From NCBI GenBank assembly GCA_016207685.1, contig JACQPE010000068.1, positions 1 to 48,084 of the forward strand: DNA of 48,084 nucleotides, given 5' to 3'. Shown here one piece after another: positions 32,521 to 40,670 of this stretch (within the stretch, counting starts at the first letter, position 1; each line of letters starts with the position of its first letter). The DNA comes from Elusimicrobiota bacterium (GTDB taxonomy: Bacteria; Elusimicrobiota; Elusimicrobia; JACQPE01). A program made the position numbers and the translations under genes. The notes beneath the pieces are model-generated. The model was not told where the DNA came from, did no database searches, and saw nothing but the letters and a program-made list of their open reading frames with translations.

Positions 32521-33543
32521 CTATCTTAGTCGGTGGTGCGAAAATTTTAATCCCAAAAGGACCCGGTGCGTTTCTTGCAGGTCGCCATACCAGCCATAAG
32601 CATAATCAACAAAAAGACGTCCGGCATTGAGCCCGAATCCAAATGTCGGCCCGCCGCGATAAGATTCGGGCTCGAAGCGCCAGCCGCCGCGCAAGGAAAA
32701 AATGGGTCCCAAATTGAGTTCGACGCCCGAACGATGGTGAAAAGCCCGTTCCTCGTAAATAGCGTCGTAAGCCAGTATGTAGCCGATCCCCGATGTAATT
32801 TTGCGAGGCAAAGCGAATCCTGCTCTCGCGGACACCGGCAAAGGATCGCCGCTGTTGATATATTTGAGCTTGGTCCCTACATTCGCCACGGACAAGCCCA
32901 CGGCAAGTCTGGGATAATAAGCAAAATATCCCGCGCTGACGGCAGCTGCGTATGCCGTGTATTGACTTAATAAATTAGACTGGATCCCGTGAATCATCAT
33001 TCCGATGCTATGTATTCCTTCGCCGAGGCTCTTTCCGCCAAAACCGCCCCTTAAAAAAGTTTCCGCATAGCCTATGCCCCAGGCCAAGTCCCGGCCGGCC
33101 TGGGTTTCCCCCGTATAAGAAAGACTGCCGTCGCTGTTTAAAAGATTGACCGTTATATAGCCATGATCCACGTAGCGCAGCGTGGTAAAGGCCGTAACCC
33201 CGCCGAGCTCGTTGAGACCCCGAAAATCCAGAGGTTGGGCATAGCCCAAAAAGCTTTGTGTTTCATCAAGCACCAAGGTTTGCCGGGAAAACGATAAATC
33301 CGCCGAGTGGGAGCGGCTCAGCGTGGCCGGATTGTATTGGGCCCCATTGGAGCCATGGGGCAAGGCCGCGCCGGCATCACCCATGGCCATGGAACGAACG
33401 CCGCTGGGTGAAATTAAAAAAGTGCCCGCATAAGTTCCGGCGGAACCTGAAGCAGAAACGTCCAAAGTCCGAAGTCCGAAGTCCGAAGTCATAAAAATAA
33501 AAATCCATAAAAAGCGGCTAACGAATGGCGAATGGCGAAACAT
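32521..33543 (-). CDS. PorV/PorQ-like outer-membrane beta-barrel protein
   Basis: The N-terminal conserved block SPSGVRSMAMGDAGAALPHGSNGAQYNPATL resembles the PorV/PorQ (UPF0164) signature. The rest shows alternating beta-strand character rich in G/Y. The ORF is open to 33720, but that overlaps the subtilase 3' end. Candidate starts are ATG 33543 and ATG 33492, both followed by heptamer repeats. The start is uncertain. Confidence 0.55.
   Translation of the reverse strand: MFRHSPFVSRFLWIFIFMTSDFGLRTLDVSASGSAGTYAGTFLISPSGVRSMAMGDAGAALPHGSNGAQYNPATLSRSHSADLSFSRQTLVLDETQSFLGYAQPLDFRGLNELGGVTAFTTLRYVDHGYITVNLLNSDGSLSYTGETQAGRDLAWGIGYAETFLRGGFGGKSLGEGIHSIGMMIHGIQSNLLSQYTAYAAAVSAGYFAYYPRLAVGLSVANVGTKLKYINSGDPLPVSARAGFALPRKITSGIGYILAYDAIYEERAFHHRSGVELNLGPIFSLRGGWRFEPESYRGGPTFGFGLNAGRLFVDYAYGWYGDLQETHRVLLGLKFSHHRLR
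33465..33490. repeat. AAGTCCG x3.7 tandem heptamer directly behind candidate start ATG 33492
   Basis: Copies at 33465-71, 33472-78 and 33479-85, plus a partial copy at 33486-90. The minus strand reads ATG ACT TCG GAC TTC GGA CTT CGG ACT TTG. Confidence 0.85.
33522..33539. repeat. CGAATGG x2.6 tandem heptamer directly behind candidate start ATG 33543
   Basis: Copies at 33522-28 and 33529-35, plus a partial copy at 33536-39. The minus strand reads ATG TTT CGC CAT TCG CCA TTC GTT. Confidence 0.8.
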
Positions 33544-33616
33544 GCGGCCCGGAAAAAAATTCCCTCCCAGACTATTCGCTTTTTGCTCTTCGCGTTGCGC
33601 CATTTTTGGACTTTTT

Positions 33617-39100: not shown

Positions 39101-40670
39101 TGGCAACATCGGCATTGGCCGCGGCGGAATTCATGGCCGCGGCGCTGGAATGGCTCAAAATTCCATCGGACTCAAAAAAGCGCACATCCGGTAGCACTTC
39201 GTTGCGCGCGTTGAAGGTGCTTTGAACCAAGCAATAAATTTGGCTCGCGCGAAAACCGCCTTCGGAACCCGCGCCGTCCGTGTCATTGGACACCAGGCGG
39301 ACATCGAGCGCGGTTCCCGATGCGGCGATCGTCTGGAAGGCGCCCACATTGTCGCCTGTGTAAAGGCCCAGGCGCCGCGACGTCTCCGGCTGCAAAAGCT
39401 CGACATAATCCAAGTCATCATCGCTGGCGGAGCCTTCGCTTGAATCGCTGTTGAAATAACCCACATCGAAATTGCTGAAACGCACGCTGGTGAGCGCGGT
39501 TCCCGAAGGACAGGTGAATTTTTGCAGTTCGCGCGCATTGGCTCCATAGGGCGACGTGCTGGCTGAAGAAACATTTACCGTGGTCCAATTGGCGCCGCCC
39601 TCGGAATAAAAAATCATCCCTCCATCGCCATCCGTCACCACGGCGTAGGTGGTGCGCAAGGTGGCGAACATCGTGCGATTGGGACTGTAGACGGAGCCGG
39701 CATAGGCGAAGTCGCCCACGGAATCCGTCACCACGGTCTCCATGGCGCCATCGGTCGCGTTTCTCTGAAAAATTTCCAAGCCGCGCAAGGGAGATAGAAT
39801 TCCAATTCCCCCCTCGGAAGGGTCGCGCTGGTAATGGCGCACGCGCGCGCCGACGGACCTTAACTCATTGACCGCGCCGATATATTCTCCGGAGTGAGCA
39901 TCCACATAGGCGCTCCACAATCCAAAAGGCTGATGGCTGCGAAAATGAAATTTCCAACATAAGCGCGCTTTGCCGGAACTTCCGATGTTAAGTTCTTCTT
40001 CAAAACGGCGCGGCACGTAGACGAGTTCCCCGGATGGTTTCGCCCGCAAGGCGCCGTCGGTCCAATGTTGGCGCAGAATAGAAAAAGCCTCGCCGGAACC
40101 GATTTTAGGACTGGGACTCACGCCGACAACCCCGCTTTCCAAATTTGAGAAAGCGGCAAAGATTTCGTTGGTCTTCGTCACATGGACGCTGACGCGGGAA
40201 TACTCCACGGGGATTCCTTGATAACGCTGCTTGAACAGCATATTGCGCTCAGTGCCGCCGTCATGATCGCGCTCAAGCTCAAAGCTGAAGCGGTTTTTGA
40301 AATACTCCTGGGCTCCCGCGCCGAAGGCTTGAGGCGCCGACGTTTTTGCGTCATCCGGCGGGTTGAGGAAAAGCGGCCTGTTCTGCCAGATAAAATCAAC
40401 CGCCACATCCCGAGGATCGCGGCCTGGCTTGGGTTCACTCTTAAATCGCGTGGCGCTTTGGAGCTCTTGAGTCTTTTCATTCAAATGAAACCGCGCTCCG
40501 GCGGGGTCGCGCCATTCGTTTTTGAGGCGGCTGATCTCGCTTAAGGCTTGCCGAGATCGATCATCCGAAGCGGCCGGCAAGCGCGCGGGACACAGAACAA
40601 CGCCAAGCGCCATGACCGCCAACAAAGGCTTGATTTGGCGGCAGCGTAATTCGCTCAAGTTAAACACCAC
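36126..40670 (-). CDS. Giant secreted multidomain thermolysin-like (M4-type) metalloprotease (1514 aa)
   Basis: Domain layout by residue:
- Signal peptide (PLLAVMALGVVL).
- FTP/PepSY-like propeptide region.
- Start of an M4-like N-lobe.
- CUB-like domain, residues ~387-480.
- About 7 delta-60-type repeats, residues ~520-920 (SLDMTFGGGDGIYV, LDKAFDGDGVYV, SLDTSFNGSGYM, SLDTSFGSSGIFI; VAGY/IAGF strands).
- HEYTH at 37662-37676, plus GAMSEALAD (third zinc ligand Glu) and GEIHEDS.
- PPC pre-peptidase domain (ESNDGFATAT...GDLDYYRF).
- C-terminal FlgD-Ig/T9SS-type domain (NNVFDPTSGQKATLRY...IVIYTTNGDLVRVL...WDGRNDLGQVVASGIYLAHL).

GTG start. Confidence 0.85.
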   Translation of the reverse strand: MVFNLSELRCRQIKPLLAVMALGVVLCPARLPAASDDRSRQALSEISRLKNEWRDPAGARFHLNEKTQELQSATRFKSEPKPGRDPRDVAVDFIWQNRPLFLNPPDDAKTSAPQAFGAGAQEYFKNRFSFELERDHDGGTERNMLFKQRYQGIPVEYSRVSVHVTKTNEIFAAFSNLESGVVGVSPSPKIGSGEAFSILRQHWTDGALRAKPSGELVYVPRRFEEELNIGSSGKARLCWKFHFRSHQPFGLWSAYVDAHSGEYIGAVNELRSVGARVRHYQRDPSEGGIGILSPLRGLEIFQRNATDGAMETVVTDSVGDFAYAGSVYSPNRTMFATLRTTYAVVTDGDGGMIFYSEGGANWTTVNVSSASTSPYGANARELQKFTCPSGTALTSVRFSNFDVGYFNSDSSEGSASDDDLDYVELLQPETSRRLGLYTGDNVGAFQTIAASGTALDVRLVSNDTDGAGSEGGFRASQIYCLVQSTFNARNEVLPDVRFFESDGILSHSSAAAMNSAAANADVATAMALDSSGRLLVAGYSDSVSGDEDMVVWRFNSDGSLDMTFGGGDGIYVSTYNTTNNDRGQAITIDSQGRIIVAGYANDGGTDNNAVVWKLSPSGDSAVATFVYDSAGGNEGDRAYGVALDSLERVIITGYQTGTNRDMFAARISSASDLWSPTGNNAGLDKAFDGDGVYVSTNAAGADQGNAVAVDPSGRIVIAGFMTTGATSDMAAWMLANSSNTADSSSLIRITSHNSAAGGNGADEGAAAAVDSYGKIYVAGKSAGSSTGQDAAVWKLNSDLSLDTSFNGSGYMTYDRSGGGYDDEANGLTLDSQLRLIIGGYSNDGVTNDALLLRINTSGSLDTSFGSSGIFIHDGAAGTSGSDVIRAVRLDSLDRILGAGNSSNGNNSDMALWRVDSNGKVNVTLTNALKHLDEIHAYFVAGSRRYDQVLSTRPAVAQINFGDDLLNAFFDPESDGLYFGKGNDINYNRNIADATDVIYHEYTHFAVDHIYNIANFGHDGAMSEALADFFALDAFNAYYPSYAKTTFGDYAFPDRTDLGLETVRELNQTSKKIYPTHWTGEIHEDSLILSGALWDLRASLGSAQTKSLVRDALFYFPDSFESFYEAMITTSAGRFDTTINSVFNKHGIGSWAAAGSDSLESNDGFATATSLSVATPTAKATIYPSGDLDYYRFSAGAGTVSITLKRPLDTSSNLYFAYGFQVFDIDRTLVNDEAMPVTVYDVPQSDGGVFSEVTSQNAKVTLTLSQPELLYLAVSAPLLEGSNDRTASSSGQYELTASFNTPVGAVTGSRVAASMADRGNIKFTATNLTGFEVEQSTEATLDHVDVLDHNLSRLAAASGAALVVTTTSVLPGSLAATVSLPANFFSRYPGAGSIYLEIFVRNALGEVYSIGFSNEIKLFTDTPALAVYNNVFDPTSGQKATLRYSGSSSGSYRIVIYTTNGDLVRVLKDASEDLGSASIDWDGRNDLGQVVASGIYLAHLEGPGVNSTQKIAVVK

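Follow-up and report, generated by a model that had tools for sequence, protein, structure and literature searches.

The gene for a large zinc protease in a 2.37-Mb groundwater Elusimicrobiota genome (~90% complete, 202 contigs) and the outer-membrane barrel gene that accompanies it are best interpreted, with a probability of roughly 0.6, as encoding a paired cargo and carrier within a reduced, type-9-like route of surface display that would be used throughout the Elusimicrobiota.

The window (the whole 48,084-nucleotide stretch that was analyzed) contains three consecutive ORFs on the minus strand, encoding the protease, an S8 subtilase and the barrel (Table 1). This gene order was first described in a sequence-only reading, with gaps of 31 and about 70 nt, and is confirmed: 31 nt separate the protease stop from the start of the S8 gene, and 73 nt separate the S8 stop from the start of the barrel gene. 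Both gene junctions are spanned by contigs of independent groundwater runs. The same reading correctly placed a Crp/Fnr regulator divergent from the first gene, a position kept in the family, with the same arrangement in two relatives (L050 and L060). Public contigs break at the heptanucleotide arrays within the region encoding the barrel signal peptide. The proposal that the locus is an exoprotein island was not upheld: its GC content is unremarkable, its flanking genes are housekeeping genes, its gene order is kept in relatives, and the genome contains about 20 cargo-barrel pairs, of which this locus is one.

Table 1. Features of the protease-barrel locus, with positions in the window.
Feature	Position	Strand	Details
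Protease (cargo) gene	36126..40670	-	1514 aa, GTG start
FTP (fungalysin/thermolysin propeptide) motif, residues 146-176	40143..40235	-	PF07504 24.1 bits, cut-off 21
Delta-60/DUF5122 beta-propeller insert, residues ~483-896	37983..39224	-	TIGR02608 180 bits, 7 stretches
Zinc site, HEYTH (residues 999-1003) and GAMSEALADFF (residues 1019-1029)	37584..37676	-	Third ligand, Glu in GAMSEALADFF
Protease CTD, residues 1415-1514	36129..36428	-	Seven-strand Ig-like sandwich (predicted), extreme protein end
S8 subtilase gene	33617..36094	-	825 aa, ATG start behind GGAG site
PorV/PorQ-family barrel gene (predicted)	32521..33543	-	340 aa, ATG of 'MFRHSPF...'
Pair of tandem arrays of heptanucleotides	33460-33490 and 33522-33539 (33460..33539)		Translated inside barrel signal peptide
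Crp/Fnr-family regulator	40774..41478	+	cNMP_binding and HTH_Crp_2; divergent from protease gene

Judging from its sequence, the 1514-aa protein is a secreted thermolysin-like (M4-type) zinc metalloprotease, comprised of a signal peptide, an FTP propeptide, a delta-60 beta-propeller insert, a catalytic domain, a PPC-like domain and a C-terminal domain (CTD). The HEYxH motif and the downstream Glu are invariant across 11 orthologues (alignment A3), and the A3 profile of the catalytic part matched neutral protease as well as thermolysin (E 7e-14); the Pfam Peptidase_M4 models gave no match to the single protease sequence. The protein resembles M4 proteases with FTP and PPC domains in its HExxH motif and downstream Glu, its FTP motif, and a PPC-like segment (EPNDG...DYY) present in the orthologue alignment. 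It differs from them in the delta-60 insert, which is lineage-variable (the L060 orthologue lacks the region), in its T9SS-type tail, and in being tied to a private outer-membrane barrel.

Profile and fold comparisons indicate that the protease CTD is a relative of type IX secretion system (T9SS) CTDs, in agreement with the FlgD-Ig/T9SS-type tail noted earlier. FlgD_ig matched residues 1435-1496 with 29.9 bits (cut-off 27), and Por_Secre_tail (TIGR04183) reached 15 bits, under its cut-off of 23. A profile of 25 CTD paralogues from the same genome picked out the CTDs of PorZ (E 4.4e-13) and PorU (E 6.2e-10), followed by FlgD at ~1e-6 and the CTDs of cleaved cargo at 1e-4 to 1e-3. The CTDs of PorZ and PorU are not known to be cleaved. 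An AF2 model of the tail (pLDDT 90.6, 7 strands) had PorZ (5m11, TM 0.65) as its best Foldseek match and FlgD as its second. The PNPF motif carried by most CTD paralogues is missing from the protease tail.

The barrel is, by profile and predicted fold, a PorV/PorQ-family outer-membrane protein, as the sequence-only reading had recognized. PorV_fam (NF033709) matches it over almost the entire model (positions 3-326 of 326) with 83.7 bits, slightly below its cut-off of 90. With a profile of 16 paralogues (A1), F. johnsoniae PorV (6h3i_F) was matched at E 1.7e-33 and the next family, TodX/FadL, at 1e-5, a difference of 28 orders of magnitude. The best Foldseek matches of its AF2 model (pLDDT 83) were 8gl6_F (TM 0.71) and 6h3i_F (TM 0.68), both of which are PorV within the SprA complex; FadL reached ~0.5. 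A generic FadL porin was considered and rejected, since both rankings place PorV first. Its family and its gene pairing predict that the barrel acts as the protease's cognate carrier or anchor.

This pairing is a general feature of the genome, which contains 27 CTD genes and 31 barrel genes in about 20 cargo-barrel pairs. A barrel gene lies downstream on the same strand within 5 kb of 22/27 CTD genes and directly abuts 17 of them, mostly with a 4-nt start/stop overlap; chance alone predicts about 0.4 abutting pairs (P about 1e-25). The cargo proteins, up to 3736 aa in length, comprise ~20 different enzymes and adhesins, each with a private downstream barrel. Across 19 pairs, the distances between CTDs correlate with those between barrels (r = 0.40, Mantel p = 0.0005), and the nearest neighbour is identical for both in 7 pairs, although joint duplication of both genes may be the whole reason for this co-divergence. 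The pairing is not strictly one-to-one, because ~9-12 of the 31 barrels either come after an unrelated housekeeping gene or sit at a contig end. A whole-genome search found the protease-barrel pair in 10/10 relatives, and among the 74 species with testable protease loci in named Elusimicrobia the CTD is terminal in all and the barrel abuts the protease in 70. The protease-barrel pair is ancient, and the pairing pattern is phylum-wide in Elusimicrobiota. The idea of a minimal cargo-PorV module serving a simplified or different CTD route is retained as to the route, whereas the isolation of the module is not.

The S8 gene does not belong to this unit. Its product is a subtilase (Peptidase_S8, 128 bits; D/H/S catalytic motifs present; PDB subtilases at E 3e-39) with a signal peptide and without a CTD; the propeptide ascribed to it earlier was not detected as a domain, and its first ~350 residues match nothing. 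Only the window locus, L060 and L063 carry it between cargo and barrel; the L061 locus and that of G096 (L050/L062) lack it, and in G096 it is found on another contig. Since the barrel abuts the protease in nearly all species and the S8 gene separates them in only three loci, the ancestral and conserved unit is the protease and barrel, not a cluster of all three genes as first described, with the S8 gene inserted later in one subclade.

The sequence-only reading had seen no other T9SS component in the window. No canonical complete T9SS was found in the genome either, but a single SprA-like gene (1823 aa) is present elsewhere. Its product matched TIGR04189 in three colinear stretches (155 bits, E 1.4e-45; cut-off 200 bits), and neither a Pfam model nor, directly, a PDB sequence. 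Compared with the SprA/Sov-PorV translocon (6H3I, 8GL6), the genome thus has one SprA homologue as well as PorV homologues; the pore, however, has a length of ~1800 aa, whereas the family model has 2319 positions, and its gene adjoins lptF/lptG, away from any cargo gene. One copy of the SprA-like gene occurs in each of 114 of the 121 phylum genomes; none was found in the four genomes that have no barrels (Fisher p = 4e-6), and three have barrels without a detected SprA-like gene.

It might be argued that this is an ordinary T9SS cargo locus, in which the barrel is one PorV paralogue of many and the motor, ring and sortase are unassembled or too divergent for models trained on Bacteroidota. The genome is incomplete and fragmented, the sub-cut-off score of the SprA-like protein shows how far components have diverged, and the GldM and GldN models, which matched 0/121 genomes each, were also silent in control genomes, so that their sensitivity is unproven; GldL likewise had no match in the genome itself, in a search without a positive control. 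However, the 121 genomes include several single-contig genomes that are 97-100% complete. GldK is absent, the sole GldK-like match being a diversity-generating retroelement's variable protein, which adjoins Avd and a reverse transcriptase; every match of the PorU model is confined to the CTD (positions 950-1094), leaving no detectable PorU catalytic domain; and no T9SS gene lies close to the SprA-like gene. Moreover, a single PorV serves many type A cargoes in Bacteroidota, whereas here about 20 barrels are private. An ordinary T9SS is accordingly considered unlikely.

Even less probable is a self-contained two-gene export, somewhat like two-partner secretion, in which each PorV-like barrel carries and anchors its own cargo and the SprA-like protein is uninvolved, acting for example in LPS export. 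Its position beside lptFG rather than beside cargo makes another role possible, and the tight, often translationally coupled pairing, the undetected motor, ring and sortase, and the three genomes that keep barrels without it fit such a scheme. On the contrary, the modeled barrel is small and of FadL/PorV type, its best structural matches being PorV and substrate-specific channels and not protein translocators, and the largest cargo would have to pass it; the SprA-like gene is near-universal in the phylum and missing from every barrel-less genome; and neither PorV nor SprF works without SprA in the known system (PMC10994853, PMC9143113). Sheer coincidence, with a FadL-type solute channel beside a generic Ig fold, is already disfavoured and highly improbable: both window proteins score under curated T9SS cut-offs, Ig-like sandwiches abound and FlgD comes second in sequence and fold searches, but PorV heads both barrel rankings, the PorZ and PorU CTDs beat FlgD by ~4-7 orders of magnitude, and tails and barrels are neighbours far beyond chance, in most species, and co-diverge.

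The reduced type-9-like route would operate as follows. The protease, with a signal peptide read from its sequence, would be exported by Sec; its Ig-like CTD would serve at the outer membrane as the recognition site for the PorV/PorQ-like barrel of the same operon; and, by homology, it would cross that membrane via the single SprA-like pore and exit bound to its own barrel. The tail is probably uncleaved, tethering the protease to the cell surface through the barrel, because a PorU-type sortase could not be detected and the tails are similar to the CTDs of PorZ and PorU. The S8 subtilase might, most plausibly, be an accessory processing protease that acts on the propeptide or frees the cargo, a suggestion that is quite tentative.

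PorV had been cited earlier as a general shuttle; a private carrier or anchor, such as PorQ-PorZ, PorV-PorU or PorP/SprF with type B cargo, is the better analogy. In P. gingivalis, the partners PorQ/PorZ and PorV/PorU are not known to be encoded by neighbouring genes. PorQ-PorZ and PorV-PorU are included in its attachment complex (PMC9143113). A PorV/PorQ-family barrel and a CTD-bearing surface protein occur in both systems, as one complex there and as a prediction from genes here; the Elusimicrobiota tails are nearest in sequence to the PorZ and PorU CTDs, with PorZ the best fold match. By contrast, P. gingivalis has only two such pairs, as machinery for A-LPS attachment, against ~20 cargoes with private barrels. 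Type B cargo genes (F. johnsoniae SprB-SprF; P. gingivalis PG1035-PorP) are likewise linked to the gene of their own 14-strand FadL-type carrier, and it is established that such cargo-adjacent carriers are required for secretion and then anchor the cargo, with the CTD uncleaved (PMC9143113, PMC12618676). However, the Elusimicrobiota barrels belong to the PorV/PorQ family NF033709 and not to PorP/SprF, and the tails are PorZ/PorU/FlgD_ig-like, with CHU_C below cut-off (20-27 bits).

In the SprA/PorV mechanism, the CTD of a cargo binds to loops of the carrier within the pore, and the two then depart together (PMC10994853). Both SprA and the GldKLMN motor/hub are needed by the Bacteroidota pairs, and the motor is required there to extract the carrier from SprA (PMC10994853); no GldKLMN component was detected in this genome, which counts against the reduced route. 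The same applies to the sub-cut-off scores of the barrel, the tail (TIGR04183) and the SprA-like protein, to the missing PNPF motif, the imperfect pairing and the three barrel-bearing genomes without a SprA-like gene, and to the uncontrolled GldL, GldM and GldN negatives together with the incomplete assembly. No paper on such a cargo-barrel route in Elusimicrobiota was found in the literature. Overall, the observations of the sequence-only reading were confirmed and its interpretation was partly supported: a pared-down type 9 system seems to operate beyond the group regarded as the owner of type 9 secretion.

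The three minus-strand genes described in the sequence-only reading, with gaps of 31 nt and ~70 nt, are found as open reading frames at 32521-40670 with gaps of 31 and 73 nt, and the Crp/Fnr regulator said to be divergent from the first of them is also seen in the window. Both gene junctions are spanned by contigs that stem from multiple runs of a single groundwater study; these contigs, although of low depth, confirm the gene order. The locus is flanked by housekeeping genes (holB, tmk, and wecB on one side; hisS, aspS, phoH, ybeY, queG, and folD on the other). Its description as an “exoprotein island,” and with it horizontal transfer, is rejected, as the base composition is unremarkable and relatives keep the locus in the same company of crp, hisS, wecB, and tmk. 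A scan for an operon promoter and terminator gave no signal exceeding shuffled expectation.

Positions of the locus features in the window, and of other genes discussed (C, contigs of the window's genome; L, loci)
Feature	Position	Strand	Remarks
Protease gene	36126-40670	-	1514 aa; N-terminus signal-peptide-like
Fungalysin/thermolysin propeptide motif			in the 1514-aa protease
Delta-60/DUF5122 repeats			seven, in the 1514-aa protease
Delta-60 beta-propeller block	37983-39224		residues ~483-896
S8 gene	start ATG 36094	-	825 aa; GGAG site ahead of start; 31 nt past protease stop
Barrel gene	likeliest start ATG 33543	-	340 aa; 73 nt past S8 stop
GTCCGAA tandem array	33460-33490		x4.4
CGAATGG tandem array	33522-33539		x2.6
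8-nt tandem repeat ATCTCTTA	32458-32518		x7.6
Crp/Fnr gene			divergent from protease gene
SprA-like ORF	C187:8075-13546		1823 aa
Unpaired tail gene	C175:23027-25858		ends at contig end
Extended barrels (examples)	C171:4654-6213; C136:5151-6758; C175:17389-19215; C79:11818-13341		500-600 aa
S8-like stretch	C42:26498-27130		inside a 10571-aa open frame
Retroelement	C185:540-3532 (L020/L021)		strand-coherent
Sister-genus protease gene	L050:4418-8765 (G096:C3)		two overlapping ORFs
HEAT-repeat-like genes	L051:2481-3635; L055:4812-5960; L056:4254-5378; L059:3944-5053		~370 aa

The PorV/PorQ family is represented by the models NF033709 (NCBIfam) and PF19572 (Pfam). The window barrel matches NF033709 over its full length (model positions 3-326 of 326) and falls narrowly under the cut-off (83.7 vs. 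90 bits); 15 paralogues in the same genome exceed it (best, 169 bits), and a 60%-identical orthologue is annotated by NCBI as a PorV/PorQ family protein. A phmmer search of the PDB with the window barrel alone gave no matches, and PorV was reached by profile only: a profile comprising the window barrel as first row and 15 short paralogues matches the PorV of F. johnsoniae (6h3i_F) with an E-value of 1.7e-33, the next matches being TodX and CymD (~1e-5) and the best FadL-family match having an E-value of 9e-6. The AlphaFold2 model (pLDDT 83, pTM 0.79) retrieves PorV 8gl6_F first (E 3.5e-12, TM 0.71) and 6h3i_F second in Foldseek, both of which come from SprA complex structures, with FadL-type channels at a TM of ~0.5. 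These matches point to a specific homology with experimentally defined PorV, beyond that with FadL or TodX, and the predicted structure to a FadL-type fold nearest to PorV. The PorV/PorQ signature noticed in the sequence is thus borne out by the profile and the fold, and the suggestion that the barrel could be an unrelated porin or FadL-type protein is contradicted by the wide lead of PorV over TodX, CymD, and FadL in both sequence and fold searches. The two heptanucleotide tandem arrays fall within the stretch of the barrel gene that codes for the signal peptide, and public contigs break exactly at these arrays. Many paralogues, both barrels and cargo, have similar translated repeats (“LTWNLELGTWN,” “LTLNSQLSTRNS,” and “TLDFGLWTLDS”) at their N-termini. 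The 8-nt repeat fills the spacer between the barrel stop and the wecB start.

The tail of the protease, a domain that terminates at the last residue of the protein, passes the FlgD_ig model (PF13860, 29.9 vs. 27 bits) and remains below the cut-off of the type A model TIGR04183 (15.1 vs. 23 bits); paralogue tails score 20-22 bits against the 27 required by PF18962, and with each of FlgD_ig, Por_Secre_tail, and CHU_C the cargo tails of the genome score close to threshold. A profile built from 25 tails of the genome matches the C-terminal domains (CTDs) of PorZ (5m11, 4.4e-13) and PorU (6za2, 6.2e-10), and more weakly FlgD (~1e-6) and, among cleaved cargo, the CTDs of endonuclease I (8glk_D) and RgpB (1e-4 to 1e-3). 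PorZ and PorU are the two CTD proteins located in the attachment complex together with PorQ and PorV (PMC9143113). The AlphaFold2 model of the tail is a seven-strand sandwich (pLDDT 90.6) with PorZ as its top fold match (TM 0.65). The tail is therefore a homolog of proven type IX secretion system (T9SS) CTDs, placed at the extreme C-terminus and predicted to fold as a seven-strand Ig-like sandwich. The T9SS-type C-terminal domain proposed from the sequence finds support in the PorZ and PorU matches and in FlgD_ig, and not in TIGR04183.

The protease carries a zinc site composed of HEYTH at residue 999 and GAMSEALADFF at 1019, 20 residues on, in columns that are invariant in 11 orthologues. A profile of the catalytic part of these orthologues matches neutral protease and thermolysin (E 7e-14 to 2e-13), whereas the Pfam Peptidase_M4 models are not reached by the single sequence. 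With HExxH, a Glu ~20 residues downstream, and similarity to thermolysin, the protein can be assigned from its sequence to family M4. The delta-60 beta-propeller block is an insertion, present in the window, at L061, and in the sister-genus genome (G096), and missing in the otherwise collinear L060 orthologue and in distant ~1100-aa orthologues. The two overlapping ORFs of the sister-genus protease gene reflect a frameshift or an assembly error.

A search for related loci with the barrel alone gave no confirmed relative; an alignment of protease orthologues succeeded instead, and a scan with it, with one genome per species, found 80 loci, many from groundwater, which are mostly titled Elusimicrobia or Elusimicrobiota, a few being labeled just “MAG: bacterium.” At all 74 loci with enough downstream DNA, the protease ends in the tail, and at 70 of them a PorV-like barrel lies within 150 nt of the protease; at the remaining four, one barrel is at 171 nt, one is hidden by an over-extended ORF, and two (at L060 and L063) are separated from the protease by an S8 gene. 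Ten relatives found by whole-genome search show the same protease-barrel pair, and the order in the sister genus (L062) is hisS, crp, protease, barrel, wecB, tmk, with no S8 gene. Because it is conserved across Elusimicrobiota loci and in the sister genus, the protease-barrel pair is an ancient unit that has been vertically inherited. In other families of the class, a gene for a HEAT-repeat-like secreted protein is located directly upstream of the protease gene with a 4-nt overlap; it is missing from the family of the window, in which the Crp/Fnr gene occupies that position.

The second protein of the locus, which has no C-terminal tail, scores 127.9 bits against PF00082 (cut-off 21.8), matches PDB subtilases at E 2.8e-39, and retains the triad motifs VIVDSGLD, HGTHVAST, and SGTSMATPHV. 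On this evidence it can be placed in peptidase family S8, as had been read from the sequence, although the propeptide attributed to it was undetected. Among the family models proposed as a check of the three proteins, those for S8 and FlgD_ig are passed, whereas those for the PorV family, the Por tail, and Peptidase_M4 remain below cut-off. At L060 and L063, the S8 gene lies between protease and barrel as in the window, and at L060 its start overlaps the protease stop. Synteny with relatives accordingly upholds the protease-barrel pair, while the S8 gene at this position is confined to the window, L060, and L063. The possibility that S8 was an ancestral member of the module was rejected, given that the barrel directly follows the protease at nearly all loci. 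The sister genus lacks S8 at the locus, and its S8 orthologue (47% identity) is found on another contig, far from any cargo or barrel; thus, the S8 gene is a later insertion, retained in one subclade at ~43% identity and still operon-coupled. Candidate roles are propeptide processing or freeing of the protease from its anchor. The S8-like stretch on another contig of the genome would belong to a giant protein.

The pairing of cargo and barrel extends across the genome of the window (2.37 Mb, 202 contigs, ~90% complete), in which a six-frame census with iterated HMMs detected 31 PorV-family barrels and 27 ORFs that terminate in this tail. Of the 27 tail genes, 22 have a same-strand barrel no more than 5 kb downstream, and 17 directly adjoin it, mostly with a 4-nt overlap, against a chance expectation of ~0.4 (P ~1e-25); at least one unpaired tail gene stops at the edge of its contig. 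The cargo comprises adhesin-like or enzymatic proteins, with fn3, TIG, Reeler, and Kelch domains, beta-propellers, and another S8 domain. Pairing is not strictly one-to-one, as seven barrels follow housekeeping genes (for example, thrS and genes for a phosphoglycerate-mutase-like protein and an M16 peptidase), none of which has a CTD. Among 19 abutting pairs, tail and barrel distances correlate (r = 0.40, Mantel p = 0.0005), and tail and barrel have the same nearest neighbor in seven; therefore, the tail and barrel genes have diverged together. The mean identity between paralogues is only ~26%, from which it follows that the expansion is old. Approximately one third of the barrels have a C-terminal extension, presumably periplasmic, made up of a coiled coil with a CsgG/LpoB-like domain, TPR, or LysM-like sequence, and these extensions are candidates for periplasmic or cell-wall coupling.

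Elsewhere in the genome, an ORF matches the SprA model TIGR04189 in three colinear stretches (155 bits, E 1.4e-45; cut-off 200), with no match to a Pfam model and no direct sequence match in the PDB by phmmer; judged by this similarity, it is a SprA/Sov homolog that does not qualify as an equivalog. The gene is single, lies between lptF/lptG and a group made up of rsmE, dnaJ, dnaK, and hrcA (L009-L011), and has no cargo or barrel gene near it. Such an ORF (~1750-1900 aa) occurs once each in 114 of 121 genomes of the phylum, and PorV-family genes in 117 of 121, often with 15-60 candidates per genome and few or none in lineages whose genomes measure 1.0-1.7 Mb. The four genomes that lack barrels also have no SprA-like ORF (Fisher p = 4e-6), and since all four belong to one genus, they are not four independent events. 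All 15 matches to the PorU model NF033707 cover model positions 950-1094, namely the CTD, at the ends of unrelated cargo ORFs, and no PorU catalytic domain was detected in the genome, so none of them is taken as the sortase. The sole match to GldK (64 vs. 350 bits) is a generic FGE-sulfatase domain and was rejected as PorK, because adjoining Avd-like and reverse-transcriptase genes identify it as the variable protein of a diversity-generating retroelement. This retroelement comprises a secreted protein of FGE-sulfatase fold, a small Avd-like protein, and a reverse transcriptase. In searches run without a positive-control genome, GldL had no match in the genome of the window at E ≤ 0.1, GldM had none there or in any of the 121 genomes, and GldN had none in the 121 genomes, including that of the window.

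In Bacteroidota, cargo is exported by Sec and attaches through its CTD to a carrier barrel, whose loops project into the SprA pore. The carrier is PorV for type A and PorP/SprF-like for type B cargo, and exit of carrier and cargo from the pore requires energy from GldLM; type B cargo is anchored to its own, neighbor-encoded carrier with the CTD uncleaved (PMC10994853; PMC9143113; PMC12618676). The SprA-like pore, the carriers of the PorV/PorQ family, and the tails of the PorZ/PorU kind map onto this scheme, and the logic of a private carrier is already known from type B cargo. The protease may thus be exported by Sec and then pass through the SprA-like pore, whereupon its own barrel would capture it and hold it on the cell surface; adjacency and co-divergence are consistent with binding of the CTD by the barrel, and translational coupling would match the supply of carrier to that of cargo. 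As the sortase is undetectable, the tail probably stays attached to the protease. A more far-reaching interpretation, to which we assign a probability of roughly 35%, is a minimal T9SS made of a shortened SprA-like pore, many private PorQ/PorV-like carriers, and never-cleaved PorZ-type tails, with no PorLM, PorKN, or PorU, which would represent an ancestral outer-membrane core surviving outside the FCB superphylum. Alternatively, the genome may encode a full T9SS that has diverged past recognition, in which case the locus would be an ordinary one; the GldL/M/N searches, run without a positive control, leave room for such a system, but the zero matches in 121 genomes and the false GldK and PorU matches on inspection make it unlikely. 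It is more doubtful still that the barrels export the cargo by themselves with the SprA-like protein uninvolved, because their fold is small and of the PorV type and because pore and barrels occur together. That an unrelated porin and a generic Ig domain stand side by side by chance is effectively excluded. If the minimal T9SS is real, release of carrier and cargo would be possible without a proton-driven energy chain, or by an unrecognized driver, for which the TPR, CsgG/LpoB-like, and coiled-coil extensions of the barrels are candidates.

All T9SS papers retrieved restrict the system to Bacteroidota or the FCB superphylum and present the PorLM motor and PorKN ring as required (PMC12421860; PMC9170169; PMC10994853). 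By contrast, homologs of the pore, carrier, and tail are found here in another phylum, in which the energizing and sorting parts are undetectable and the carrier has proliferated, so that each cargo would have an anchor of its own. Our literature search found no paper linking Elusimicrobia or Elusimicrobiota to PorV, SprA, or type 9 secretion. All of these parts have homologs in the known T9SS, and an orthologue of the barrel is already automatically annotated as “PorV/PorQ family protein”; what is new is the phylum, the expansion of the PorV/PorQ family into private carriers that serve PorZ-type tails, and the seeming absence of motor, ring, and sortase. For annotation, a “FlgD Ig-like” tail followed by a “PorV/PorQ family” gene in candidate phyla is best read as a cargo-carrier pair. 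Elusimicrobiota are common in groundwater and guts, and Elusimicrobium minutum is a cultured species of the phylum; because the protease gene is present in a MAG labeled E. minutum (L138), bench tests may be feasible. If the minimal system is real, the triad of pore, carrier, and tail would be the evolutionary core of type 9 secretion and a natural test of the necessity of the motor, and it would account for the display of proteases and giant adhesins on the surface of Elusimicrobiota.
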